From the sequence record SRR31156797_9682: a stretch of 62,086 nucleotides of DNA. One strand, given 5' to 3'. The position numbers and the translations under genes are program-made. The notes under the pieces were generated by a model, which worked only from the letters and a program-made list of their open reading frames with translations, was not told the origin of the DNA and searched no databases. The stretch's first letter is position 1. Each line of letters opens with the position of its first letter. Below, one piece after another: positions 26,430 to 59,762 of the stretch.

Positions 26430-27362
26430 TTATGCCACCTCCTCTATAATTTTACGATCTTGGCTTAAAATAACCCCGCAAAATACAACCGCACAAGCCA
26501 GAAACTGCCAAAAGGTGAACTGTTCACCTAAAATCACAAAACCAAGAATAACAGCAAAAACTGGAATAAGATTAATAAAGACTGAAGCCTGATTTGCGGG
26601 TATGCGACTGATACCAAAATTATACAACCCATAGGCTCCAACACTGACAAAAACGCCAAGATAAAGGATAATCAACAACCCACTGGGCGATATTGTCTCA
26701 GGAACATGTACCTGGGGAAGCAGCAGTACCGGCAAAAAAAACAGCGCTCCAAGGATACACTGCACGGCTGTTAAGAAAAAAGATGAAAGATCTCTACTTA
26801 AATATTTCATCAGGATGATGTATCCTGTAGCGCAGACCATGGCTAAAAATTCCAAAAAATTACCCAAGGCCGGGTTGGGAGCTTGCGGGGTACCTTCTCC
26901 TGCAAGAGTGAGCCATAGAGCCCCGGCAGCCGCAACGATGAAACCGATGACGGTTTTTCGTGAAATATGCTCCCCCAAAATTGTCCCGGCAGCAAACGCC
27001 ACAAGCAGAGGCAACATGGTTGTAATCATCGACGCTTGAGACGCGCTGGTCTGCTGGAGAGCCGCAGCCTCAAAATGAAAATACAGACAGGGCTCACAGA
27101 GGCCCATTCCCAACATGGGCAACAGGTGCTTTTTCCTGATTGGAACCTTGACAAAATAACGGATAAAAGGAAGAAAGCACAGTGAAGCGACTACAAGACG
27201 CCCCAGTATGACGAGCAGGGGGTCAAGTTCAAAAAAAGCATACTTCATGACAGCAAAAGAGCTTCCCCACAACACCATGGCCACCAACATTGCCAATGTC
27301 GGCAGCAGGCTCCCCCGATAAGAAACTACTTGCTTAGTATATCCTTTATGTTCCACATCCAT
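26430..27362 (-). CDS. DMT/EamA-family transporter
   Basis: About 10 TMs; LWGSSF, LGEHIS and NLIPVFAVILGFVILGE EamA repeat motifs. Start codon uncertain. Confidence 0.9.
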   Translation of the reverse strand: MDVEHKGYTKQVVSYRGSLLPTLAMLVAMVLWGSSFAVMKYAFFELDPLLVILGRLVVASLCFLPFIRYFVKVPIRKKHLLPMLGMGLCEPCLYFHFEAAALQQTSASQASMITTMLPLLVAFAAGTILGEHISRKTVIGFIVAAAGALWLTLAGEGTPQAPNPALGNFLEFLAMVCATGYIILMKYLSRDLSSFFLTAVQCILGALFFLPVLLLPQVHVPETISPSGLLIILYLGVFVSVGAYGLYNFGISRIPANQASVFINLIPVFAVILGFVILGEQFTFWQFLACAVVFCGVILSQDRKIIEEVA

Positions 27363-29819
27363 AGTTTCTCTCGCAAACAGCTCACGGGTATAATATTCTT
27401 CTCTATCCTACTCTCTGCGCTACTCCAGGGCGCCATCGCAACAAAAGCACACGGGGCACCCCTTGACTTGCAGCATGCAAGCTGGCGGCAGACCGTCAGT
27501 CTATACCAGAGAAACGACTGCCTTACCAGTGAGCAAGTGGCCTATGGCAAAGAAATCATTAAAGGGCTCAATTACAACAGCCAGCGAGTATTCCGTGTAT
27601 TCTGCACGCTGCCGGCTCTCGATTTTGCCCAGTGTCAAAACATCTGGTCGCTGCTCATAAACCACCATCTCACCTTTGAACAGGTGCGCAGTTTTGAACA
27701 ATGGAGCAGCCTTAACGAGACTGATCTCGATCTCTCCCTAAGGGCAGTGCCAACAATCAGCACCCTCTCCTATGCAGCGGGCAAGAGCTTCAATGCTTTT
27801 TCAGGCCTCCCTGATACGACTCCAGGCTTTGCTCTGCAACTAATCCCCATGCTTAACAAGCTGCCGAATACCACCCATAAAGCACTGCAGGCCATACTGT
27901 CAGTCAAGGGAATGACGGCCGCACAAGTGACAGAAGCTTTACTCACGATACACAGGCTCAATGAGAGTCAGGCCATGGCAGCAAAAGCCTATGCCCAGCT
28001 TGAAGGGATGGATACGGCTATCTTTTTCGAGGGATTGCCCCTGATTTCAAGACTCAGAAAACAAGACGCATGGAACACCCATTTTCTTTTTGCCACTATC
28101 CAACCATCCAGCAGGGAAGCCTGGGACTGGCTGATCATGTTTTTTGCTCTGCCGCCCGACATCCAGGAGACCCAAGTCGCCACCTTTGAAAAAATACAGA
28201 AGAAACAGCTGCTCCAAGGCATGCAGGCAGCTAGTCAGAATCTTATATGGGAGTTAAACGACCTCCACGCTCTCACGGATCGCTTTGGCAGGGAGCTTTC
28301 TTCAAACGTTCTCCACCAGATGTCGTCCAAAGAGCTGCACCGACTTTTCAATCGACTCTCACCGGTTATCAGAGTCCGTTATGGTAACGATTTTTCCGCA
28401 GCAATTGAGGCGCAGCAGCAAGGCACAGCAATCACTATTCTGCATAAAGCAACCTCTGCTGCCAGGTCGCATATTGCATCCAGCCTCACATCGATCAACA
28501 TCTATGCCCTATTAAGCCAGGGGAGTGAATTGTATGATTCCTCTTTTCGGAATATCCTGGTTCCTGTTCTGCAGCGGCGTTTGGCGAAGGCCTTTTCAGG
28601 TAACCTCCTTCTTTTACTTGAATCTGTTGACCCTACACATTCTTTAGTGTCACAGTTCATCACCAGTTGTGCCCAAAAGGGCAAACTAGCCGCTTTTTTC
28701 CCAAAAAACAGTCACCAGCAACAACAAATACTCGACTTGGTCGCCCTGTCGGCTTTTCACGATCCGTTCTCACTGCTTGTCTTTACGGCGACAATGCAGC
28801 CGCTGTTCAGCGTCCTCAAACCAGAGGTCCGTTCCTATCTTGTACAAAAAATGATCTCCGCCGTACAGAAAACCAACCCAGAGACAGCAAAGCTGCTGAT
28901 TGCGACCTTGCAGTATTATCATCAGCATCACCAAAATGCCCTTACCCAAAAGGACCAGGTAGAATTGAGCCTGCTTGAGCAAAAGTACGGCCGTATCTCT
29001 TTTGCCCCATACCTGCGAACACCTTTTGCGGAATGGAAGCATGACAACAGCCTGGTCTCTTTGTCCCTTTTCCATCCCGATGATGATGGACGGCAATCGT
29101 TTTATTCCTTTGCCCGTCACCTTTTGCAAAAAGGCTACTTGCTGCAGCCTGCTCCCGGCTATTCACCTGGTGAAGCACCTCCCTCGCAGCAGAAAAAGGC
29201 CAGGGATCTTATCACTCAATATGGAGCCATGGGACCACATGGATTGCCGAAACTGTTTCGTCTGATGGAGACAGAAAACATCAGTGTTTCCTTTAGCCGC
29301 ACCCTTAACCACATAACCATCCTTCATACACTCTCTGTGTATGCTACCCCGGAAGACCAGCAGAAAAAGCTGCTTCACTTTGTTGCAAGCGGTCATGAAA
29401 TGCTCATCCAGCGCGGCCATAGTTACTGGAGAAAAGAACAAATCACAGACCCGATAACCACCCTTCTCGGAAACAACATGCTCACTCCCTCAATGCTCAA
29501 AAACAAGCAGCGCTTTTTAAGCATTGGATCCTGTGGAGGTATGAAAGTATACTCATACCTTAACCAGCTATTTAAAGGATCAGTCGACATTCTGGCAACA
29601 ATCGGTACAGGTCTTACTGAAATAAACACCCCTTACAACACCTTTTTATTTGAATTCATCGCCACCCATTGGGAAGCTGACACCTGGGATAAGGTTACCG
29701 ACGCCTCGGCTTCACTTTTCCAGTCCGGCCGTGGCCAGGACTATCTGCAGCCAGGATCGCTGCCAGCTATCCTTCATAAAATGTTTTTCAGCCAACCTGA
29801 CGCCATCCTCCACCTATAA
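27348..29819 (+). CDS. large exported hypothetical protein with 32-aa helical repeats and a C-terminal RGHSY/GSCGG domain
   Basis: ORF of more than 800 aa with a signal-like N-terminus, co-oriented with holA 14 nt downstream. ATG at 27348 is preferred. Confidence 0.8.
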   Translation: MFHIHSFSRKQLTGIIFFSILLSALLQGAIATKAHGAPLDLQHASWRQTVSLYQRNDCLTSEQVAYGKEIIKGLNYNSQRVFRVFCTLPALDFAQCQNIWSLLINHHLTFEQVRSFEQWSSLNETDLDLSLRAVPTISTLSYAAGKSFNAFSGLPDTTPGFALQLIPMLNKLPNTTHKALQAILSVKGMTAAQVTEALLTIHRLNESQAMAAKAYAQLEGMDTAIFFEGLPLISRLRKQDAWNTHFLFATIQPSSREAWDWLIMFFALPPDIQETQVATFEKIQKKQLLQGMQAASQNLIWELNDLHALTDRFGRELSSNVLHQMSSKELHRLFNRLSPVIRVRYGNDFSAAIEAQQQGTAITILHKATSAARSHIASSLTSINIYALLSQGSELYDSSFRNILVPVLQRRLAKAFSGNLLLLLESVDPTHSLVSQFITSCAQKGKLAAFFPKNSHQQQQILDLVALSAFHDPFSLLVFTATMQPLFSVLKPEVRSYLVQKMISAVQKTNPETAKLLIATLQYYHQHHQNALTQKDQVELSLLEQKYGRISFAPYLRTPFAEWKHDNSLVSLSLFHPDDDGRQSFYSFARHLLQKGYLLQPAPGYSPGEAPPSQQKKARDLITQYGAMGPHGLPKLFRLMETENISVSFSRTLNHITILHTLSVYATPEDQQKKLLHFVASGHEMLIQRGHSYWRKEQITDPITTLLGNNMLTPSMLKNKQRFLSIGSCGGMKVYSYLNQLFKGSVDILATIGTGLTEINTPYNTFLFEFIATHWEADTWDKVTDASASLFQSGRGQDYLQPGSLPAILHKMFFSQPDAILHL

Positions 29820-44465: not shown

Positions 44466-45569
44466 TCAGACTTTCTCACTCGGATGCCTGCCGTGGTAGG
44501 CCATGGCTGACGAACCGATTTCATCGCGGGTTTTACCAAGGGCCGCAAACGTACCCATTTCCGCTGTCATCTTGAGTGCAGCCTCTATTATGGGAAAAAC
44601 CAAAGCACACCCCGTGCCTTCTCCAAGACGCATATCCATGTCAAGCATTGGCTCCAGGCCTGTAATTTCCTTGAGAAGCTTAGCTCCTGGTTCGAAAGAG
44701 ATGTGTGACGGGATAATATAATCAATGACTTCAGGCTTCAACTGCAGTGCAGTCAGTGCTGCCACATTGGAAATCAACCCATCGGCAACCACTGGAACCT
44801 TTCTGGCAGCACAGGCGAGGTAGATACCGACCATACCTGCAATGTCGAGACTCCCCACCTTGGAAAGTACATCCAAAGGGTCATCACGATCAGGCTGGTG
44901 CAGATGCACCGCATCCTGAACTACCTTCTTTTTATCGGCATATGCCTCATCGCTTAGCCCTGCCCCACGACCGACAACACGATCAATATTCGCACCGGTA
45001 AAGGCATACAGTACAGCACTGGAAGCGGTGGTATTTCCAATACCTATCTCCCCTGTACCAAGAAGATTATATCCGTCATCAATAGCTCGGCCAGCAATTT
45101 CAATCCCAGTCTCGATCCCTTTAATGGCCTCTTCTCGTTCCATTGCAGGTTGCCTGCGAAAATTCGCCGTTCCATAGCGAATCTTTCGCGGGATAACGCG
45201 GGGAAGATCCACATCAACCTGGATACCGATATCCACAGCAATAATATCAGCCCCTGCATGATTGGCCAGGAAATTCACCCCCATCTTGCCGGAGGTTACA
45301 AAATCAGCACCTATCCGGGTGACATCCTGAGGGTACATAGCAATCCCTTCGCCGCACACACCATTATCAGCCATCATGACAATAATAGCTTTTTTACCGA
45401 TAGAGTTGTTTAGTTTACCGGTAATCCCTGCCACCTGGCGAGCGATATCTTCGAGCTTACCAAGGCTTCCGGGGGGTTTGAGACAATAATCAATTTCTCG
45501 CTGGGCTTGTTTCATGATCTCCCGGTCCGTTGCCCGGATCTGCCCGAGGGTCTGCTCTAATATTTTCAC
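44466..45569 (-). CDS. cobT: nicotinate-nucleotide--dimethylbenzimidazole phosphoribosyltransferase
   Basis: KPPGSLGKLE, GEIGIGNTT, GRGAG and MRLGEGTG motifs. Confidence 0.95.
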   Translation of the reverse strand: MKILEQTLGQIRATDREIMKQAQREIDYCLKPPGSLGKLEDIARQVAGITGKLNNSIGKKAIIVMMADNGVCGEGIAMYPQDVTRIGADFVTSGKMGVNFLANHAGADIIAVDIGIQVDVDLPRVIPRKIRYGTANFRRQPAMEREEAIKGIETGIEIAGRAIDDGYNLLGTGEIGIGNTTASSAVLYAFTGANIDRVVGRGAGLSDEAYADKKKVVQDAVHLHQPDRDDPLDVLSKVGSLDIAGMVGIYLACAARKVPVVADGLISNVAALTALQLKPEVIDYIIPSHISFEPGAKLLKEITGLEPMLDMDMRLGEGTGCALVFPIIEAALKMTAEMGTFAALGKTRDEIGSSAMAYHGRHPSEKV

Positions 45570-45574
45570 GAAAC

Positions 45575-46174
45575 CTACCTGTAGTTAAATCGCACCAGAA
45601 TCGGCATATCGCCCATAAATTCAATTTCGGTTAGAGTGGCATTATCCACCTTAAACTTCCAATACCCCGCAGAAATTGACTCGCAAAAATAATGAGCCAT
45701 CAGTGAGCGTATACAGCCCCCATGGGAGACAATCGCCAACTCTTTACCCGCATTTGCACCTACCAACTCATCAACAAAAGAGATAACCCGTTGTTTAAAT
45801 GAACCAAAGGCTTCACTGCCCGGTATTTGCGTCTTCTCCCAGTCGGTCAGCCATGTCTTCCAGGCATCTGGATAACGCTTTTCAATCTCTGTAAAATGCA
45901 GCCCTTCCCATTCACCAAAATGGTATTCCTGGATGCTTGAGTCGGTAATAATAGGCGCTTCGCTTCCAAAAACAAGTGAGGCAGTTTCAGTAGCGCGCTG
46001 CAGCGGACTGGAGAAAATAGTATCTACATCCAGGGCGTTGACACGCTCCCCCAAATAGGATGCCTGGCTTCTACCATGATCGTTTAAAGGGGCATCGGTA
46101 CTGCCCACCAGCACACCGCCTTGATTTTGCTCAGTCTGTCCATGACGGATAAGATACAGTTTCGTTACCTTCAT
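45575..46174 (-). CDS. cobC: alpha-ribazole-5'-phosphate phosphatase (histidine phosphatase)
   Basis: LIRHGQT, SSPLQRA, FGEWEG and VSHGGCIR motifs; ATGA overlap with cobS. Confidence 0.88.
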   Translation of the reverse strand: MKVTKLYLIRHGQTEQNQGGVLVGSTDAPLNDHGRSQASYLGERVNALDVDTIFSSPLQRATETASLVFGSEAPIITDSSIQEYHFGEWEGLHFTEIEKRYPDAWKTWLTDWEKTQIPGSEAFGSFKQRVISFVDELVGANAGKELAIVSHGGCIRSLMAHYFCESISAGYWKFKVDNATLTEIEFMGDMPILVRFNYR

Positions 46175-46947
46175 ATCAAAAAATCCCATGCTAAAAGAAA
46201 ATATAAAAAAGAAAGCATTTCGCTTAATTCAATTGTTGCTCCGATGGTATCACCGGTGATCCCGCCAATTCGGTACTGCAAATAATAAGCAAAAGCTACC
46301 GCCAGTACAATAGCAGTCCCATGGAGGGCTGCAAGAGACCACATGACCGACCCAAGAGACATACCTGTAAAAAATAATACCAGGCTAGTGACCACTAACG
46401 AGCATACAGTAGCAGTAAGCGCCTGAGGCAAACCAACACGATCGGTAAACGCTCCCATCCCTGATTGCTCCCTGGCATAGGTAGCCACTGCAGCATGCCA
46501 GGTTGTGGCCATGCGACCAAGGACTGGAGCACAGAGCAGAGCGGTCACGCCCCCTGCAAGCGGTATGTTTTTCAAGGTAATAAACTTCAGCAGAATGGTC
46601 AAAACCACAGCCACCACCCCGTTGGTCCCCAAGGTCGAATCACGCATGATCTCCAGCACTCGCTCTCTTGGGCGATAACTGAAAAGACCGTCTGCCGAAT
46701 CCCCCATACCATCAAGATGGAGACCACCGGTGACAGTGATAAGAATAATCAAAGCGAGAAAGCTCGAGACCTCAGCCCCGAAATAAGGAAAACACAGATA
46801 CAGAATGACTGCAGCAGGCAGGCCGACCAAAAAACCGACAATGGGCATCCATTTCATACCCTGGACAAACCTGTCAACAGTAAAATCTATCTGCAGCGGG
46901 ATAGGGTAACGGGTCATAAATTGAATCATCAACAGTAGGTTAGACAT
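46171..46947 (-). CDS. cobS: adenosylcobinamide-GDP ribazoletransferase (cobalamin synthase)
   Basis: FMTRYP, TGGLHLDGMGDSADG, IMRDSTLG and GGITGDTIGA motifs. Confidence 0.95.
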   Translation of the reverse strand: MSNLLLMIQFMTRYPIPLQIDFTVDRFVQGMKWMPIVGFLVGLPAAVILYLCFPYFGAEVSSFLALIILITVTGGLHLDGMGDSADGLFSYRPRERVLEIMRDSTLGTNGVVAVVLTILLKFITLKNIPLAGGVTALLCAPVLGRMATTWHAAVATYAREQSGMGAFTDRVGLPQALTATVCSLVVTSLVLFFTGMSLGSVMWSLAALHGTAIVLAVAFAYYLQYRIGGITGDTIGATIELSEMLSFLYFLLAWDFLI

Positions 46948-47518
46948 GGACTCCGTCCCCTTTTATTTGTACAGGAATACCAGACACAACCATAATTACC
47001 TCGTCTGCTGCAGCAGCCATGCGCTGATTGACCCGACCACTGCAATCCCGAAAAAAACGGGACAACGGTGTACCCGGGACGATTCCCAACCCCACCTCAT
47101 TGGTCACCGCAAACAGATGACCAGCATACAGCTCCTGGGCAGCTAGCAGGGCATCAATTTCCGCCAAAACCCGTTGTTCAATCTGGGCCATGCTTTCCAC
47201 GGTTGGCTGGTCCCAATCAATGTATGAATCATGAAGGATGATATTTGTAGTTAAGACAGTAAGGCAGTCGAGCAAAAAACCATCATACTGCTCTTTATGA
47301 TCACTGATAATCGATGACGGCTGCAAAGGTTCTTCAAATGTCTGCCATACTGCTGGCCGCTGTATCCTGTGCCTGGCGACCCTCTCTTCCATTTCTGCAT
47401 CTAGCGCACGCGCAGTGGCAATATAGGCTATGCTTTCACAGCCTCTGCCTATCTGCTGCTCTGCATAACTGCTTTTACCGCTGCGGGCTCCCCCCGTAAC
47501 CAATGTCAAGCGCCCCAT
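46940..47518 (-). CDS. cobU: bifunctional adenosylcobinamide kinase / adenosylcobinamide-phosphate guanylyltransferase
   Basis: GGARSGKS, YIATA, EMEERVARHR, LDCLT, NEVGLGIVP and FRDCSGRVNQ motifs; ATG at 47518 preferred. Confidence 0.95.
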   Translation of the reverse strand: MGRLTLVTGGARSGKSSYAEQQIGRGCESIAYIATARALDAEMEERVARHRIQRPAVWQTFEEPLQPSSIISDHKEQYDGFLLDCLTVLTTNIILHDSYIDWDQPTVESMAQIEQRVLAEIDALLAAQELYAGHLFAVTNEVGLGIVPGTPLSRFFRDCSGRVNQRMAAAADEVIMVVSGIPVQIKGDGVHV

Positions 47519-47619
47519 ATCAACTCTGTATCCACTATTTACCTCATGAGAGTCCCTGCTGCGTATCACGCGCACAGGTAGGGACAGGTGAGCAGGATCT
47601 CCACCACGAAGATCACTGC

Positions 47620-47951: not shown

Positions 47952-48173
47952 CTAATCATCATCGAGAAGGTCTTTTGTGTTAAGTTCCCTTTCGATATCC
48001 TTGTCAGACATTGTGCCAAGAAAAACTTGTGCGTCTGACTCTAGAGTGGTTTGATGACACAGACAATATAGTTCAATCGCTGTGTCGCTCCATCCTTCCT
48101 CCCTAAGCTTTTCATAATGTACTTGATAGAAATCATTTACTATTTCATACAACATTACTTCTCTGGTATCCAT
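47952..48173 (-). CDS. hypothetical acidic protein (73 aa)
   Basis: GGAGG RBS before ATG at 48173; follows arsC on the same strand. Confidence 0.55.
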   Translation of the reverse strand: MDTREVMLYEIVNDFYQVHYEKLREEGWSDTAIELYCLCHQTTLESDAQVFLGTMSDKDIERELNTKDLLDDD

Positions 48174-48308
48174 CAATGTACCTCCTGTGTTAGTTCCAAC
48201 CATTTGTTAAACAATGTTGGCAAAGCGAGGTTATTTGTTGTTTGCTGAAGAGTTACTGTTCAATTGACAGCGCTCATAAATTGAACAAAACAGCTAGTGG
48301 ACTCATTT

Positions 48309-48734
48309 TTAATATTTGCCCGGCAACGCATCTACATATACTTTTATTTCATCTCTTACCCTTCTATAAATATCGAGTTTTTCACCTTCATCCTTTATAT
48401 CACGTGCTAACTTTGGCGGATCATCAAATGACTGACATATCACATTCACTTCAGGTGGAAAAGAGGGGCATTTTTGTGCTGCTACACTGCAGACCGTAAC
48501 AACCAGATCAATATCCTCTTGAAGAAAATCCCTAACCGCATGAGTTTCTTGGCCTGAGATATCGACACCAACTTCTTGCATGACCTTAACCGCAAAAGGA
48601 TCAAGCGGCCCGGTGCTAATCCCCCCAGAATAGGCATTAATCTTATCCGGATGGAGATGTCGAGCCCAACCTTCGGCTATTTGACTTCGGCAAGTATTCA
48701 TCTCGCAAACGAAAAGTACATTCCTTTTTGACAT
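48309..48734 (-). CDS. arsC: arsenate reductase, thioredoxin-dependent LMW-PTP family
   Basis: P-loop FVCEMNTCRSQIAE (CX5R), resolving cysteines VCSVAAQKCP, FDDP, RRVRDEI. Confidence 0.88.
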   Translation of the reverse strand: MSKRNVLFVCEMNTCRSQIAEGWARHLHPDKINAYSGGISTGPLDPFAVKVMQEVGVDISGQETHAVRDFLQEDIDLVVTVCSVAAQKCPSFPPEVNVICQSFDDPPKLARDIKDEGEKLDIYRRVRDEIKVYVDALPGKY

Positions 48735-49275
48735 TTTCAACTCTCGTATTGGTATTGTTGACAATGGAAATCCTAAATTAATGAAACAAAATCTACTATC
48801 AACAGATTACGATTAAGTAAATTAAGCGTTAGGCGATTATAAGGTAAGGGATATGAGCGAGAAGGGAGAACTGCAAAATTAAACAGTGCGCTGACACTTC
48901 TGTGTCATGCCTGTGCAAGCTTTTTTTTACATTTGCACTCTTATCGGTTCCCCCCCTGCCGGTTGGCAAATGGCCAGCGAGGCAACATCCCTTGACAACC
49001 TGACAAAATTATCTGAACACGACACACGCCCCTTGCTGTTTAACCCTTTTTTGTTTAAAAAAAGTCACCCGCCAGCAAGGATTCGACCGTACAGATCGGC
49101 AAACGCTGAGTAGGCTGGGCAATAGCTTTCGAAACGCAGTCTCAAGACTGCCGGGCGCTTTTTATGAAACGGGCCGCCAGCTAAAATGGGCAACATGTAT
49201 GAATAGCCCTTTCAAATAAAGGATGTAACTATCACACCTCCATAAACTTCCGTTTTTCATTAACCCACCTGGTAT

Positions 49276-51618
49276 ATGTTGACTCGTAATAAAATGTCCC
49301 CCAAGATATCCAAAGATCCGGAAAACCACAAACCGCCGACCTTTAAGCTAGGGTTGATTCTCTTTGGCATTGCCGGTGTCATCCTGGCCTGGGGGGTGAC
49401 CTTCCACCAACTCGACAAATCCAGGACTACCCTGCTTGGCAGACTGGACAGGGAACAGAAAAACCTAAGCAGCGTTCTGGCAGAGAGTTTTTTTCAGATC
49501 CTTGATCAGCAAAAGGCCATTAAACAAGTTGCCATCAATAGACTCAAAGGCAGCAGTCGTTCCCTCATCGATATCGAGGGATATTTTTACAGTGAACGCG
49601 TTTTTAGCCGAATTGTTTTTCTTGATGCTTCCGGAAAGGTGCTTTACCGGTCGTCTCCATTACAATGGGAAAAGCATGCTGCGCATGAGAATATAAGCAA
49701 GCAAATTGCGCTGGCATTAACAACAGGAGATATACTTATTTACAAATCCCCCCAAACTCCCGACGTCCCATGGCACATCTCTATGTTGTTCCCAATCAAG
49801 AACGGCAAGACCGAGGGTGCAATGCTTCTGGAGCTCGACATCGGCTACATCCTTAGCATTATCCAAGGAATAGATATCGGTAAATCTGGTGAAATTGTAA
49901 TCGGAGACAACAAGGGGAAAAGTCTGGCAGTTTTTGAAAGCGGTGGGCTTTCAATCAAAAAAAACGTGTACCAGGTATCGCTCCCCTCATTGTTGGAAGA
50001 TTTTTCAGGTTCCGGAGTCTTCAACTACCCAGGTCAAGGGGAACGGCAGTTTGCATTTACCCGGGTCAGAGACTATCCGGTAATCATATCGATCAGCCAG
50101 GAAACGGATGATTTCCTGTACTATTTTTACCAACAAAAAACAAAATCGATCTGGGCCCTGCTCATTCTGACCTGCTTTTATCTTGCTGCGATCTATCTTT
50201 TACTGAAAATGGAAAGCCGCAAGCATAAATACCTTAACGCACTATCCTCCTCCTACACCAAAAACAAGGAACTGGTTGAAAAACTGGAACAAAAGCACAA
50301 GGCATCGGTCAAAGAAGCATCCATAGATCCTTTGACCGGACTGTACAACCGTCGACTTTTAGAATATTTGGTAGAAAAACAACTTGCTTCAGCCAAACGC
50401 AAAAAATATATTAATGCTTTGATTTTTATAGACTTGGATCGTTTTAAAAACATTAATGATACGCTTGGTCATCGCGTAGGGGACCTCCTGCTGGTCAACG
50501 TTGCAAAGCGGTTGACAGAATGCACCAGAAAGTCAGACATTGTTGCAAGATTTGGTGGGGATGAATTTGTTATCTTCTTATCCGAAATATCTCGTGATCA
50601 AAATATTATACCCATTCTAGATAAGATCGTAACCGAAGTATCAATGCCCTACGAAGACCTTGACGGTCACAGTGTTAACACCACTCCCAGTATTGGTGTA
50701 GCAATATACCCTAGGGATGGTGAGGATATGGAGTCACTGCTCATCAGTGCTGATGCAGCGATGTACAAATCAAAAAAATCAGGCAGAGGGAAATATAGTT
50801 TCTTTGACACGAGTCTCAATAAAGTTTCCATCAAAAAAAATGAGATTGAGCAGAGAATGCCACGCGCCCTGCGTGATAATCAGTTTGTGCTTCACTATCA
50901 GCCAAAGGTCAATCTTGGAGATTTTCGCGTAACAGGGTTGGAAGCACTCATTCGTTGGCAACTGCCGGACCACCAGTTGATTTACCCAAATGACTTCATC
51001 GAAATAGCCGAAAGCGCCGGACTGATTATGGGACTTGGCTCTTGGGTCCTGAAAAACGTCTGTAGCCAGCTGCTTGAATGGCAGAATCAGGGTCTGCAAC
51101 TCGTCCCTGTCGCTTTAAATGTCTCATCACTAGAACTGCAACATGCAGATTATGCCGAACGATTTATTGCGGACTTGGATAAAAATAGAATTTCACCCAA
51201 ATTCCTCGAAATTGAGATAATCGAAAGTGCTCTCATCGAAGAGAAAGATAGAGTAATAAAAAACCTGTGCACCCTTTCAAACCATGGAGTGCAGATTGCA
51301 CTGGATGACTATGGCACAGGGGTCTCCTCACTCAAAAAGATTCGAACGTTTCCTATACATTCTTTAAAAATTGACCGCAGCTTCATCCGGGAAATCCGAA
51401 ACACCTATTCCGATCCCCCCATCGTTCATTCAACCATCACTCTCGCGAAAAAGCTTGGCCTGGTCATTGTTGCTGAAGGAGTTGAAACACATGAACAGGT
51501 CGTTAACCTCAAGGTTGCCGGGTGTGATCAGGTACAAGGATACTACTTCAGCCGTCCGGTAAACCGAGATAAAATTCGAGATTTCCTTGCTTCCCCCATA
51601 CGGAGTTTGTCAGCATGA
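49276..51618 (+). CDS. membrane-bound diguanylate cyclase/phosphodiesterase (periplasmic Cache-like sensor, GGDEF, EAL)
   Basis: Two TMs flank a ~250-aa periplasmic region. DPLTGLYNRR, IDLDRFKNINDTLGH, RKSD-x5-GGDEF; EALIRW, DDYGTG, LKIDRSF, AEGVE, QGY. Confidence 0.93.
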   Translation: MLTRNKMSPKISKDPENHKPPTFKLGLILFGIAGVILAWGVTFHQLDKSRTTLLGRLDREQKNLSSVLAESFFQILDQQKAIKQVAINRLKGSSRSLIDIEGYFYSERVFSRIVFLDASGKVLYRSSPLQWEKHAAHENISKQIALALTTGDILIYKSPQTPDVPWHISMLFPIKNGKTEGAMLLELDIGYILSIIQGIDIGKSGEIVIGDNKGKSLAVFESGGLSIKKNVYQVSLPSLLEDFSGSGVFNYPGQGERQFAFTRVRDYPVIISISQETDDFLYYFYQQKTKSIWALLILTCFYLAAIYLLLKMESRKHKYLNALSSSYTKNKELVEKLEQKHKASVKEASIDPLTGLYNRRLLEYLVEKQLASAKRKKYINALIFIDLDRFKNINDTLGHRVGDLLLVNVAKRLTECTRKSDIVARFGGDEFVIFLSEISRDQNIIPILDKIVTEVSMPYEDLDGHSVNTTPSIGVAIYPRDGEDMESLLISADAAMYKSKKSGRGKYSFFDTSLNKVSIKKNEIEQRMPRALRDNQFVLHYQPKVNLGDFRVTGLEALIRWQLPDHQLIYPNDFIEIAESAGLIMGLGSWVLKNVCSQLLEWQNQGLQLVPVALNVSSLELQHADYAERFIADLDKNRISPKFLEIEIIESALIEEKDRVIKNLCTLSNHGVQIALDDYGTGVSSLKKIRTFPIHSLKIDRSFIREIRNTYSDPPIVHSTITLAKKLGLVIVAEGVETHEQVVNLKVAGCDQVQGYYFSRPVNRDKIRDFLASPIRSLSA

Positions 51619-52526
51619 AGTCATTACCAACGATTTTGGTAAACCTTGTACTTCTATCTCTCGTTGTATTCGCCCTTGCACATGTCACAACAGCCGGCGA
51701 AGGCAACGAAAAAGCCCCCCTCTACTTTTCCTTGATTCCTAAAAAAAATGTGGATAAACAGATTTCCGAGCTCCAGCCCCTTCTTCGGTTTCTTGAGAAA
51801 GGACTTGATAGGCCCATTCAGGTAATCCGCCCACAATCCTATCATACTGTCATCGAAGGTATCCTCTCCGAAAGAATCGATTTCGCCATCCTGGGACCAG
51901 CTTCTTACGGCAAGACAAAAGAAAAAGACAAACGTGTTGAACCTTTTGCCTCTTTTGCATCTCAGCAAGGGTTGCTTACTCCGCAAGGGAGCTTTTACTA
52001 CTCTGTGTTATTCGCACTGAAGGACTCTGGCTACACCACTGCAAGCCAGCTCAAAGGAAAAAAAGTAGCTCTTACCGACCCGGAATCGACTTCTGGCGCC
52101 ATCATTCCAAGCATTTATTTTTCAAGAGATATCGAATTTGTTTTCTCCAATTTCTTCAGCTCCAGGGTTTACACCGGCTCTCATGATAGATCTATCAGTG
52201 CGGTCAAAAGGGAACTCGTCGATGCCGCATTTGTCTCTTCCGTCAGCGTTGACGAGGCTATCCACAAAGGGCTTATTGATAAGAAACAAGTAGCAATCTT
52301 ATGGAAATCAGAGCCAATCCATTATGACCCTTTTGTTTTTCGTGGTGGTCTGGACACATCCATAAAAGAAAAAATCAAGAGGCTCATGCTGTCTTCGTCT
52401 CCTGAACTTCAACCCATGTTCACCAAGACGAAAATGCTCGGGATTGTAGAAGTCGATGACGAAGACTATAAAGCCATACATGAAATCATTGCCATCCGGA
52501 AAGCACAAGAAAAACCACTGGATTGA
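51615..52526 (+). CDS. PhnD/PtxB-family phosphate/phosphite/phosphonate substrate-binding protein, orphan
   Basis: Signal peptide; GPASY, YYSVL, TDPESTSG, TGSHDRS and DAAF motifs; ATGA overlap with the upstream GGDEF-EAL gene. Confidence 0.9.
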   Translation: MKSLPTILVNLVLLSLVVFALAHVTTAGEGNEKAPLYFSLIPKKNVDKQISELQPLLRFLEKGLDRPIQVIRPQSYHTVIEGILSERIDFAILGPASYGKTKEKDKRVEPFASFASQQGLLTPQGSFYYSVLFALKDSGYTTASQLKGKKVALTDPESTSGAIIPSIYFSRDIEFVFSNFFSSRVYTGSHDRSISAVKRELVDAAFVSSVSVDEAIHKGLIDKKQVAILWKSEPIHYDPFVFRGGLDTSIKEKIKRLMLSSSPELQPMFTKTKMLGIVEVDDEDYKAIHEIIAIRKAQEKPLD

Positions 52527-53437: not shown

Positions 53438-55633
53438 TTATTTCTTTTTCTTTATCATCTTCTTGCTTTTCTTCATGGTTAACTCCTTGCGCCCCATAGC
53501 CTGCCGTTTCTCAGCAGCCTTAATCTGATGGTCAAAGGAAGAAACACCTTCCTCAGCTTTCTGTGGACTGCGTTGGATGTATTCACCGCTTTCCCTCATC
53601 TCCCAACAATTGCGTTTGTCTCCAAGCTGAGTGTCGAGCATTTCTCTTAACAGTGACTGCAGGCGAGGCGACTCCACAGGGATACACACCTCAACCCGGC
53701 TTTCAAGATTACGTTTCATCAGATCTGCAGAACCAATGTAGTATTCATCATTGCCGTTATTGTGAAAATAAAACACCCTTGTGTGTTCCAGGAAACGACC
53801 GACAATGGAGAGGACCCGGATGTTATCAGAAAGACCGGGGATACCCGGACGGAGCCTGCAGGTATCGCGCACGATAAGATCAATTGATACACCGGCCTGC
53901 GAAGCCCTGTACAAAGCGGCGGTAATGGCCTTATCCTCAAGGGCGTTGGTCTTGAGCTGGATCAGGGCCGATAGTCCCTTCTTCTTGTGCTCGATTTCGC
54001 GCTCGATCTTTTTGAGCAGTCCATTTTTAAGCAGTTTCGGAGAGGGAAGCAGTTTTTTATATTTTCGGATGGGTGTGTATCCAGTTGTGAGGTAATTGAA
54101 AAGTTCTGTTAAGTCTCCTCCGATTTCTGGATCACAGGTCAGCAAGCCCAGATCGCAGTATCCCCGTGCCGTTCCGGAATGATAGTTTCCCGTACCGATA
54201 TGAGCGTACCTCTTGAGTCCGTTGTAATCCTTTCGGATCACAAAGATAACCTTGGAATGGGTCTTGAGGCCTACGACACCATAGGTGACGTGGATGCCCA
54301 CTTCTTCCAGGGACCTGGCCCAGCGAATGTTGGCCGATTCGTCGAACCTGGCCTGCAACTCAACCACCACTGCGACCTGCTTACCGTTTTGTGCCGCATC
54401 AATCAGATGCTGGATGACCTTGGAATCATCTGCAGTTCTGTACAAGGTCATCTTGATCGCCAACACCTTAGGGTCAATGCTTGCCTCATGGAGAAAACGT
54501 TCCACCGAGGTACCAAATGACTCATATGGGTGCTGAAGGAGAATGGAACCGTGGTTACGGATTACATGGAAAGTATTACGGTCTTTATCCTGCAAGTCCG
54601 AATTGTCAACCGGTTGGTGGGATGGGTAATGTAAATCGGGCCGATCCAGCTTGGCTATCTGGAGCAGGTCCTTCTTGGCCATGATACCGGTGACCTCAAA
54701 CAGATCCTTGTCTTCATCAATGCCCAGTTCGTTGGCAAGCATACCTCGATGTGGTTCTGCCATGCATGAACCTACCTCCAAACGAACTATTTCCGCAAAT
54801 TTTCTGTCCCGCAAAGCTGACTCTATCACCGAGAGGAGGTCATTTGCCTGCTCCTGACCCTTTTCGGTGATGGCGTTCCTGGTGACCCGAAAAATTTCGC
54901 ACGATTCAATTACCATTTCGGGAAAAAGGTGCTCCAGGTTGTTAGCAATGATCTCCTCAACCGGAACATAAAGATCCTGCCCGTTGAGCTTTGTAAAACG
55001 AGATATATCCCCGGCATTGACAGGAACCTTTATCCTGTTGAAATAACAGTGTTCGCTGTCTGGATAACGTACCGCCACCAGCAGGTTGATGGAAAGGTTG
55101 GAAATGAAGGGAAAGGGATGTGCGGGATCAACTCCCTGGGGGGTCAGGAGCGGGAAGACTTCATTAAAGAAAAAATCATCTGCAATTTGCTGGTTCTCTT
55201 TGTCCAACTCGTTGTAACTGGTAATCCTTATGCCATTTTCCTCTAGCAGGTTCAGCAATTCACCCTCAAGTGCCTGCAGGGTTTGGAGAAGATCTTTTAC
55301 CTTGAGCTGACAATCGTCGATCTGCTGCTGGGGAGTTCGACCATCCAACGAGAGCTTTTTTACTCCGGCACCAACCTGCTGCTTGAGTCCGCCTATTCGC
55401 TTCATGAAAAACTCATCAAAATTTGAACCGACCACAGCCATAAAAAAGAGTCTCTCCAAGAGAGGATTGCGATCATCCTGCCCTTCATGGAGAACACGGC
55501 GATTGAACTCCAGCCAGGTTAATTCGCGATTGAGATACCATTCAGGGGAATCGAGATCAAAATCCCGCTGGAGTGTTTCTTCCTTTTCAGTGGGAATGTC
55601 GGATGTAATGACAGGTTGCGTGCTTTTATCCAT
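53438..55633 (-). CDS. ppk1: polyphosphate kinase 1
   Basis: YLNRELTWLEFNRRVL, HPFPFISN, HPYESF, IKMTLYR, ARFDE, LKTHSK, GTGNY, SIVGRFLEH and GSADLMKRNL motifs. Confidence 0.97.
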   Translation of the reverse strand: MDKSTQPVITSDIPTEKEETLQRDFDLDSPEWYLNRELTWLEFNRRVLHEGQDDRNPLLERLFFMAVVGSNFDEFFMKRIGGLKQQVGAGVKKLSLDGRTPQQQIDDCQLKVKDLLQTLQALEGELLNLLEENGIRITSYNELDKENQQIADDFFFNEVFPLLTPQGVDPAHPFPFISNLSINLLVAVRYPDSEHCYFNRIKVPVNAGDISRFTKLNGQDLYVPVEEIIANNLEHLFPEMVIESCEIFRVTRNAITEKGQEQANDLLSVIESALRDRKFAEIVRLEVGSCMAEPHRGMLANELGIDEDKDLFEVTGIMAKKDLLQIAKLDRPDLHYPSHQPVDNSDLQDKDRNTFHVIRNHGSILLQHPYESFGTSVERFLHEASIDPKVLAIKMTLYRTADDSKVIQHLIDAAQNGKQVAVVVELQARFDESANIRWARSLEEVGIHVTYGVVGLKTHSKVIFVIRKDYNGLKRYAHIGTGNYHSGTARGYCDLGLLTCDPEIGGDLTELFNYLTTGYTPIRKYKKLLPSPKLLKNGLLKKIEREIEHKKKGLSALIQLKTNALEDKAITAALYRASQAGVSIDLIVRDTCRLRPGIPGLSDNIRVLSIVGRFLEHTRVFYFHNNGNDEYYIGSADLMKRNLESRVEVCIPVESPRLQSLLREMLDTQLGDKRNCWEMRESGEYIQRSPQKAEEGVSSFDHQIKAAEKRQAMGRKELTMKKSKKMIKKKK

Positions 55634-56856: not shown

Positions 56857-57174
56857 ATGACGTTTATAGAATTCAAAAAGACACTACTTGATGCGGAGAT
56901 CACCCTTCCCAAGTTCTGCAAACTGATCAAGGTTAGTGATAAAAATATCCAGTCGTATAAAAAGAAGGGCAACGTTCCTAACACAATAGCGGTTATTGTC
57001 ACCTGCTTTGCAGAGATGCACCGTCAGCAGATAGACTACCGCTCTCTTATCGAGGAACTAGGATTGAAAAAGCAAACCAAAAAAGGCGGGTTCAAAAAAA
57101 AGGTGGTTCTTGAGGCTGAACGGGAAAAACCTGAATCTGAAACCACCCCCTCGGAGAGTGAGGAAGAGAAGTAA
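56857..57174 (+). CDS. XRE-like HTH DNA-binding protein
   Basis: MTFIEFKKTLLDAEITLPKFCKLIKVSDKNIQSYKKKGNVP fits an HTH-XRE pattern; basic then acidic tail. Confidence 0.65.
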   Translation: MTFIEFKKTLLDAEITLPKFCKLIKVSDKNIQSYKKKGNVPNTIAVIVTCFAEMHRQQIDYRSLIEELGLKKQTKKGGFKKKVVLEAEREKPESETTPSESEEEK

Positions 57175-57577: not shown

Positions 57578-59356
57578 ATGCCGGGGGAATGGGCGGCGAT
57601 GACAGATCAAATACCTTACCAATATATCATTGTTTATTTTCTAGGCGGCCTTGCTCTATTTCTCTACGGCATGAAAACCATGAGCAACGGTATGAAAAAA
57701 ATTTCAGGTGAGCGTATTCGTTCCCTGATGTCACGCTTAACCGACAATCGATTGCTAGGGATGCTGACCGGTGCCTTTGCAACAACTATCCTTCAGAGTT
57801 CCAGCGCTATAGTAGTCATGTTGGTTGGACTGGTTCAATCCCAGCTCATGACTTACATACAGGCGATGGGGGTCATCCTCGGAGCTGAAATCGGCACCAC
57901 CGTCACTGCCCAGCTCATTGCTTTTAGACTGCATGACTACGCCCTTCTCATTTTTGCGATGGGATTCCTCCTTCACGTAACAGGTAAAAAACAGAGTTAT
58001 CAGAATGCTGGAGAGGCTTTGGCAGGGTTTGGCCTGTTGTTTTTTGGCATGCAGCTCATGTCGGAGGCAATGGAGCCTTTGCGCAGTTACGGACCTTTTC
58101 TTGACTTGCTTGATACATTTTCAGAACCACTCCTAAGTGTTTTGGTCGGTATGGGGTTCACAGCACTCATTCAAAGCAGCAGTGCCTTTATCGGAATCAT
58201 TATCGTACTTGCTCAACAGGGGGCACTCAGCCTGGAAGCAAGCATCCCCCTGATGCTCGGGGCAAATATCGGTACCTGTATCACTGCTGCTCTTGCCACC
58301 ATAGGTACTTACAGGGCTGCAAAGCGGGTTTCCCTGGCACAAATACTTTTTAATCTCAGCAGCGTTTTGTTTTTTCTTTGCTTTATTCCTGAAATGGCAG
58401 AAATTGTGCGTTCTTTTTCGCCTGGTGCTGTCAGCAGCGGAGTGGAGTCAGCCACGGCACACCTTCCTCGGCAAATTGCCAATGCGCATACCTTATATAA
58501 TGTACTTATGGCCTGTGCGTTTCTTCCTCTGACGCCCCTTTTTGCCCGACTGATTGAACATATCCTTCCAGATAAAGAAGAAGAAGTCAAACTGATTCCC
58601 ATGACCTGGCACCTGAAAAAATCGGCTATTAGTTCACCGCCACTTGCCTTGAGTTATACCTGGGCAGAAGTAAGCAGGATGAACAAGATCCTTAACCGGA
58701 TGTTAGGAGCTGCAATTCAACCTTTTTTCAGCAAAGATCCCGGAACTGATACCATTTTTCCACAGTTATCCCTTGTTGACGGGATTTTGATGCGGGAGCA
58801 GAAAATCGACTTTCTTGAATCAGCTGTCACTGATTATCTGTTCCAGATCATGAGGCAGGAACTCACCCCAAGTGAATCAGTGGAAGTTTTTGCACTGTTG
58901 AATATTGTGAAGGATCAGGAGGCATTAGGTGATGTTATCGAAGTCAGAATGCTTCAGCTCCTGCAGACAAAAGAGAACATGGGGATCGAGTTAAGCCCAG
59001 AAGGTGAAAAAGAAATACAGGCCCTGCATGCTCATGTTTGCACCTGCATGGGGCTGCTAACAGAAGCTATTGAATTCTCAGATACCATTAAGGCTTCCGC
59101 AATCATCGGACAAATAGAAGGTTTTGACCAACTTGAGACGCTTACAGAACACCATCACCTGAAACGAATCCAACAAATGGTAAGCATTTCGGAACTAAGC
59201 CATGACATGCACATGGAGTTAGTTGATGCGTTGAAACATATCCTGTTTTACTGTGAGGCGATCACTAAAAATCTACTGGCATGCTATACTGACGGTGTAC
59301 GATCTCATTCATACCAAATAGATCGAAAGTTAAGTGAAGCCAATAAAGGAGCCTAA
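57578..59356 (+). CDS. Na+/phosphate cotransporter (NptA/YjbB, SLC34-like) with C-terminal PhoU-like region
   Basis: GGLALFLYGM, two QSSS repeats, GAEIGTT and GANIGT, RQIANAHTLYN; helical C-terminal domain. Confidence 0.92.
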   Translation: MPGEWAAMTDQIPYQYIIVYFLGGLALFLYGMKTMSNGMKKISGERIRSLMSRLTDNRLLGMLTGAFATTILQSSSAIVVMLVGLVQSQLMTYIQAMGVILGAEIGTTVTAQLIAFRLHDYALLIFAMGFLLHVTGKKQSYQNAGEALAGFGLLFFGMQLMSEAMEPLRSYGPFLDLLDTFSEPLLSVLVGMGFTALIQSSSAFIGIIIVLAQQGALSLEASIPLMLGANIGTCITAALATIGTYRAAKRVSLAQILFNLSSVLFFLCFIPEMAEIVRSFSPGAVSSGVESATAHLPRQIANAHTLYNVLMACAFLPLTPLFARLIEHILPDKEEEVKLIPMTWHLKKSAISSPPLALSYTWAEVSRMNKILNRMLGAAIQPFFSKDPGTDTIFPQLSLVDGILMREQKIDFLESAVTDYLFQIMRQELTPSESVEVFALLNIVKDQEALGDVIEVRMLQLLQTKENMGIELSPEGEKEIQALHAHVCTCMGLLTEAIEFSDTIKASAIIGQIEGFDQLETLTEHHHLKRIQQMVSISELSHDMHMELVDALKHILFYCEAITKNLLACYTDGVRSHSYQIDRKLSEANKGA

Positions 59357-59680: not shown

Positions 59681-59762
59681 AATGTGCAAGGCCAAATCTA
59701 TCGCAAGGTAGAGACGGAACACCACGGGTCCTGATTCAAAGGATAGCCGGGTTGCAAGCATA
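59681..59762 (+). ncRNA. c-di-GMP-I (GEMM-I) riboswitch
   Basis: GG-CC-AAA, P2 stem UCUAUC-GCAA-GGUAGA with a GNRA loop, GACGGAA junction, P3 CCACGGGUCCU...AGGAUAGCCGGGUUGC, all fitting the GEMM-I consensus; 84 nt upstream of a CDS. Confidence 0.85.

Follow-up and report, generated by a model that had tools for sequence, protein, structure and literature searches.

A conserved gene pair joins an orphan PF12974 binding protein to a membrane GGDEF-EAL enzyme in a probable cyclic di-GMP sensor module

We analyzed a 62,086-nucleotide stretch of DNA from sequence record SRR31156797_9682 (the whole of which we call the window) and found that two overlapping plus-strand genes within it form a real, conserved, and testable pair. 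The first gene (49276..51618) encodes a 780-residue membrane enzyme of cyclic di-GMP (c-di-GMP) metabolism, arranged as transmembrane helix 1 (TM1), dCache, TM2, coiled coil, GGDEF, and EAL, and the second (51615..52526) encodes an orphan, periplasmic binding protein of 303 residues from the PF12974 family. We consider it probable, at roughly 0.68, that the two proteins form a dedicated c-di-GMP module in which the binding protein senses a phosphorus oxyanion, alters its contact with the dCache domain, and shifts the balance between the GGDEF and EAL activities. An earlier note on this DNA had proposed a two-part sensor of this kind; conserved linkage without a transporter and retention of the phosphorus-oxygen ligands support that proposal, but NspS/MbaA, which it took as the model, is not the closest precedent.

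Bases 51615-51618 read ATGA and join the enzyme open reading frame (ORF) to that of the binding protein, as had been claimed. A Shine-Dalgarno-like GGAG (51602-51605) lies 9 nt upstream of the binding-protein ATG, and the element as a whole (51602..51618, +) is consistent with translational coupling. Because a lone ATGA overlap is common, it is the conservation of the pair that supplies evidence beyond chance. The claim that no phnC or phnE lies nearby also held: a motif scan of the whole 62-kb window (not of the genome) found an ATP-binding cassette (ABC) signature or EAA motif in none of the 118 frames that run from stop to stop over 100 residues or more. A Walker-A-like string was present in 4 of these 118 frames, and the sole match to the binding-protein profile among the window frames was the 51615-52526 ORF itself. 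Sigma-70 promoters were no commoner than chance (8 seen versus 8.5 expected). A riboswitch upstream of the pair was considered and rejected (no Rfam match at E ≤ 10; folding z, +0.88). A perfect palindrome, TGACAC-N4-GTGTCA, occurs once in the window, at 48892-48907 between an arsC-like gene and the enzyme gene, and may be a regulatory site or a coincidence; its reading as a Pho-box-like site was picked post hoc and is not used as evidence.

Homologues of the binding protein numbered 93 at E ≤ 1e-10, and 88 of them formed a tight group (E ≤ 1.8e-46) separated by a gap from the next match at 2.6e-21. Named members of this clade include Desulfobacula, Desulfobacter, Pelobacter, Marinobacter, and Pseudomonas, and the named close homologues belong to the Desulfobacterota, from which the window DNA therefore probably comes. 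For the enzyme, a search with a close orthologue as the query listed 120 matches, the top 47 being those of at least 772 bits. We counted an enzyme match and a binding-protein match as linked when their longest contigs were exactly equal in length. Among the matches listed, 24 of the 47 top orthologues were linked to a binding-protein match versus 1 of the 73 lower matches, and controls with shifted lengths gave a mean of 0.24 matches. Seven of the 25 shared contigs were under 10 kb, and those of 3771 and 4031 bp had just 522 and 620 noncoding bases to spare.

Three Pseudomonas plasmids carry the two genes in the same order, with a 13-nt overlap between the EAL and binding-protein genes and with no phnCE around them. 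The three copies are nearly identical and therefore amount to about one event. Among 977 plasmids with a binding-protein match these were the top three, and they were the only three with a match to the sensor domain. On these plasmids, which come from polluted sites, the pair and a chemoreceptor gene are flanked by a Tn3 transposase and by two toxin-antitoxin modules (L002:4420-16006). A genome scan reduced 281 pattern matches to one distant locus at 25% identity. In a mirror-tree comparison of 27 pairs, the binding protein correlated with the periplasmic domain, the GGDEF domain, and the EAL domain at r values of 0.89, 0.88, and 0.72 (partial correlations, 0.54, 0.41, and 0.07, respectively); we did not count these as contact evidence, because co-inheritance predicts them.

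The binding protein has a hydrophobic N-terminal signal with no lipobox. Its sequence confirmed the STSG (158-161) and GSHD (188-191) motifs and the lack of Cys described in the earlier note and includes IHYDPFV at 235-241. The PF12974 and TIGR01098 scores were far above their cutoffs (180.8 versus 27 bits and 188 versus 112, respectively), and the score against the PhnD equivalog TIGR03431 (202.7 bits) fell under its cutoff of 261.1. We compared the pocket with those in PMC5700983, PMC12718374, and PMC5908839, with residues counted over 87 aligned clade members. The Y-Y-STS-H residues that serve as phosphorus-oxygen ligands in PtxB and PhnD (PMC5700983) correspond to Y76, Y128, S158, T159, S160, and H190, all present in 87/87 members; HtxB, in comparison, has Phe at the third-oxygen His. 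D238 is present in 86/87, and HMMER pairs it with the PtxB Tyr cap and the Escherichia coli PhnD Asp, in agreement with an alignment previously made by eye. K43 (85/87) occupies the position of the PtxB Asp latch and PhnD T14, and the PhnD E177 position is A/S/V210 in 84/87. Additional marks of the clade are K44 (82/87), R211 (80/87), D213 (87/87), and a TPxG insertion at 122-125.

These substitutions narrow the candidate ligands. Phosphite selectivity is unlikely, because D238 replaces the PtxB Tyr cap and K43 replaces the Asp latch. A cationic 2-aminoethylphosphonate (2-AEP) tail is disfavored, because A/S/V210 and K43 replace PhnD E177 and T14; for the same reason the Asp cap, although shared with PhnD as had been noted, does not imply PhnD-like binding of 2-AEP. 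Overall, the pocket residues favor an anionic or neutral phosphorus oxyanion over 2-AEP, phosphite, or arsenite.

It is unlikely that the same module responds to a ligand without phosphorus, such as arsenate, sulfate, selenate, or a small organic anion suited to the extra Lys/Arg residues, but several observations speak for such a ligand. Structural comparison of the binding protein, which has the type II fold, gave ArrX (Z, 28.7) and PtxB (Z, 28.5) as joint best matches, and of the proteins with solved structures PtxB was closest in sequence (E, 4e-25). A stand-alone, divergent gene for a thioredoxin-type arsC-like protein lies upstream of the pair at 48309-48764 (-), and ArrX binds arsenate 150-fold more tightly than phosphate, although its contact residues are those of arsenite-binding AioX (PMC5908839). 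Against this, the Cys106 and Asp210 residues that AioX, ArxX, and ArrX conserve are replaced in the clade by G94 (87/87) and S/A208, arsC does not adjoin the pair on the Pseudomonas plasmids, and the selenate-binding model scored 77 bits versus a cutoff of 250. The absence of Cys, which had been raised as a difference from AioX, rules out the mechanism used by AioX, ArxX, and ArrX, but arsenate could still be bound in some other way.

Hydropathy analysis of the enzyme gave two hydrophobic segments, at about residues 20 to 46 and 290 to 314. TM1 (49333..49413, +) continues into a long periplasmic helix (residues 21 to 76 in an AlphaFold2 model with a mean predicted local distance difference test score of 85 and a predicted template modeling score of 0.45), and TM2 and the coiled coil form a single continuous helix (residues 282 to 348; 50143..50316, +) that runs straight to the GGDEF domain. 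Between them lies a periplasmic sensor domain of the double-Cache type (residues 46 to 290; 49411..50145, +), on which the binding protein would dock. Its assignment draws on a dCache_1 match with an E value of 8e-6 that is under the curated cutoff, ESM Atlas best matches to dCache_1 at 0.97, and the topology of the model. The periplasmic domain had no significant match among PDB sequences, a fold search with the whole enzyme returned GGDEF and EAL matches only, and neither the profile search nor the model contained a HAMP domain.

The GGDEF domain (residues 348 to 505; 50317..50790, +; PF00990, E of 1.5e-48) contains GGDEF at 427-431, an RxxD inhibitory site (I-site), RKSD, at 418-421, and D403. 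The EAL domain (residues 526 to 761; 50851..51558, +; PF00563, E of 1e-66) retains its metal ligands and catalytic residues: EAL 556-558, N615, E647/E650, DD 677-678, K698, E734, and Q754. All of the residues needed for the earlier statement that these motifs are intact were thus located, with two deviations in the window copy: loop 6 reads DDYGTGVSSL, i.e., F683V (F in 43/46 orthologues), and T649 is Ile (T in 44/46). The GGDEF motif is kept in 47/47 close orthologues and in 25/25 more distant rows, RxxD in at least 44 of the 47, and the EAL Glu in all 47; both activities are therefore probably under selection. Hypr GGDEF enzymes, which synthesize cyclic GMP-AMP (cGAMP), have a Ser in place of the Asp equivalent to PleD D344. 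D403 is invariant in 72/72 aligned rows, which argues for c-di-GMP rather than cGAMP as the product.

Several observations weigh against a binding-protein-controlled sensor of phosphorus oxyanions. In five of the 25 cases the shared contig is a whole chromosome, which says no more than that both genes occur in one genome, and 23 of the 47 close enzyme orthologues had no contig match to a binding protein. Among the 73 lower-ranked enzymes, of which just one was linked to a binding protein, sensor-profile scores were often above that of the paired Pseudomonas enzyme; all six of these enzymes with a named organism are betaproteobacterial, and the partner search for them was word limited and so cannot settle partner absence. 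Pocket residues by themselves do not set specificity in PF12974-type proteins (PMC5908839), and the window binding protein has Ser211 where most of the clade has Arg. Finally, the distal module of the dCache domain has conserved polar and aromatic residues of its own (R112, Y124, W166, and E186) and may therefore bind a ligand directly.

If the enzyme does sense a dCache ligand of its own, the binding protein could be co-regulated cargo or could serve a phnCE transporter encoded elsewhere. The distal-module residues, the many related enzymes with no detected partner, and a view of this genome limited to 62 kb are all compatible with that explanation, which we nevertheless regard as quite unlikely. 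The pair moves as a unit within transposon-flanked plasmid cargo without phnCE, its order and overlap are common to the window and Pseudomonas copies, and the binding protein scores under the PhnD equivalog cutoff and belongs to its own clade. An enzyme orthologue on an Azoarcus KH32C plasmid (L020:4710-6533) has lost nearly the whole dCache domain in frame while keeping both transmembrane helices, and no PF12974 gene lies within 5 kb of it; in this single case, loss of the sensor domain goes with absence of the partner.

The family might also be a true sensor of which the window copy is decaying or altered in specificity. Of 223 highly conserved columns, 23 are altered in the window enzyme, F683V in loop 6 among them; the median count is 3, and this one ranks second among 47. 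The binding protein carries R211S. Both frames are intact, however, and six other members likewise lack R211. Relative-rate tests against sister sequences were not significant for the enzyme (28 versus 20; P = 0.31) or for the binding protein (8:5, 7:4, and 7:6), and decay or altered specificity is very unlikely.

We therefore return to the two-protein module and propose how it may work. The exported binding protein would have been recruited from an ABC transporter lineage and would have lost its role of feeding a permease. Candidate ligands are anionic or neutral phosphorus oxyanions: phosphate itself, its esters, and phosphonates that have no amine, for example 2-hydroxyethylphosphonate (HEP) and phosphonoacetate. 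Ligand would close the binding protein and reorder the P42-K43-K44 loop, probably via a K43-D238 latch, and the closed form would dock differently on the dimeric dCache domain. Through the unbroken helix of TM2 and the coiled coil, this change could reach the GGDEF domains and move the balance between c-di-GMP synthesis, limited by its product through RxxD, and hydrolysis by EAL. By analogy with XAC2383, a binding protein from Xanthomonas citri, ligand binding might lower c-di-GMP, which we offer as a weak guess.

The sensor clade was monophyletic with support of 100/99 in a tree of 24 of 39 rows (left out were P0089-P0093, L015, L019, and 8 clade members). Of its relatives linked to transporter genes in plasmid records, the nearest comes from Leisingera and is encoded in a LysR-psrA(phpC)-phnDCE-phnA-phnY cluster, with phnW absent from the 16.8 kb viewed. 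This protein is the reciprocal best plasmid match (E values of 3e-46 and 5e-46; all others 1e-32 or weaker). It has R211-x-D213, DPF, and an insertion ahead of Y128 in common with the clade but does not have K43/K44. It was sister to the clade with moderate support (87/95), the sister being a single sequence, and three alternative groupings were not rejected by the approximately unbiased test (P values of 0.21, 0.12, and 0.21). Clusters combining phpC with phnX or with phnY-phnA have been interpreted as dedicated to HEP (PMC13576164), and the Leisingera cluster is a putative one for HEP catabolism. A binding protein from another phpC cluster, that of V. pelagius, falls elsewhere in the tree and weakens a simple equation of HEP clusters with this lineage. 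We treat the origin from a HEP cluster as a lead rather than a result. It is doubtful, though conceivable, that the clade is devoted to sensing an amine-free natural phosphonate (HEP or phosphonoacetate), having been co-opted from a HEP-cluster ABC transporter and wired directly to c-di-GMP and biofilm behavior. If so, it would connect a breakdown product of phosphonate-decorated marine polysaccharide to c-di-GMP and biofilm in sulfate reducers, Marinobacter, and pseudomonads.

In the window, the pair is flanked by the arsC-like gene, by ppk1 (53438-55633, -), and by a Na/Pi (inorganic phosphate) cotransporter gene (57578-59356, +). A c-di-GMP-I riboswitch (59681-59759, +; 50.7 bits; E, 5.6e-7) lies just upstream of a gene for an exported 5'-nucleotidase/choice-of-anchor-I protein that runs from 59807 to the end of the window; it is possible that this is a local c-di-GMP output tied to organophosphate hydrolysis. 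In this one genome, these neighbors are consistent with a phosphorus theme. The window also has a cobU-cobS-cobC-cobT-like operon for the cobalamin nucleotide loop (44466-47575, -), identified by eye and ordinary, an 829-residue ORF with a hydrophobic N terminus (27330-29819, +), and small ORFs at 56857-57174 (+) and 47952-48203 (-) with no Pfam match.

Other PF12974 genes were seen in further records. In a Desulfamplus metagenome-assembled genome (L001:5261-7977), a different PF12974 protein, with NKHP for GSHD, precedes a gene for a membrane HAMP-SpoIIE phosphatase with no transporter seen; the two are probably a further sensor pair built on a binding protein but with another kind of output. 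Two plasmids of the Roseobacter group (L014:463-5320 and L015:501-5293) combine mntR, a large gene of the cytochrome c peroxidase family, and a divergent PF12974 ABC transporter with an ISESG/GGYQ pocket in one unit.

The sensor clade is discrete, has a recognizable pocket signature, occurs in Desulfobacterota and Gammaproteobacteria, and is mobile on Pseudomonas plasmids, which offer a genetically tractable version of it. Searches of the literature, which covered open-access papers, found no description of it. If the pair does sense phosphate or a phosphonate, it would link phosphorus chemistry outside the cell to the attachment of sulfate-reducing bacteria by a route independent of Pho.

Among known systems, transporter proteins PtxB, PhnD, HtxB, and GpxB have the Y-Y-STS-H oxygen ligands in common with the binding protein; the PtxB Tyr/Asp cap, PhnD T14/E177, and the HtxB Phe are absent from it, and no phnCE is linked to it in the window or on the three plasmids. 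AioX, ArxX, and ArrX have the same fold (Z, 25 to 29) and are also PF12974 proteins used in signaling rather than transport, and the PKK loop of the binding protein lies at about the position of the putative signaling loop of AioX, residues 53 to 61 (PMC5908839). The partners of these three are histidine kinases, and they depend on Cys106/Asp210, whereas the partner here is a GGDEF-EAL enzyme and both residues are missing. In NspS-MbaA of Vibrio cholerae and ScrB-ScrC of V. parahaemolyticus, the binding protein is encoded with, and acts on, a dCache-like GGDEF-EAL enzyme (PMC8050422), as a bifunctional switch (bioRxiv 2025.02.13.638143). NspS and ScrB, however, are of the PF13416 (SBP_bac_8) and PF00497 lineages with polyamines and S-signal as ligands, and MbaA has a HAMP domain that the window enzyme lacks. 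Few c-di-GMP enzymes under binding-protein control have been characterized; the table of that 2021 review (PMC8050422) has two, and the Xanthomonas pair adds to them.

That pair, XAC2383-XAC2382 of X. citri, is the closest precedent: its receptor belongs to the same structural family (PDB 5UB3 and 5UB7, crystallized with ATP among other ligands) and is paired with a diguanylate cyclase. Teixeira et al. in 2018 are said to have described XAC2382 as membrane bound with a Cache domain and a GGDEF-only output, XAC2383 as preferring phosphate-containing anions, and homologous pairs as having other output domains. On this definition, the window pair has the same layout, with a receptor gene of the PF12974 fold adjoining that of a membrane Cache c-di-GMP enzyme and no transporter; its output is GGDEF-EAL, whereas that of XAC2382 is reportedly GGDEF only. 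Of 18 PDB entries that matched the clade profile, XAC2383 ranked last (E of 4e-6 versus 5e-39 for PtxB); it is a very distant relative of the binding protein, 17% identical by structure, and the two were therefore probably recruited separately. The design is thus already known from Xanthomonas, and what is probably new here, judging from these comparisons, is a separate protein lineage joined to a GGDEF-EAL output.

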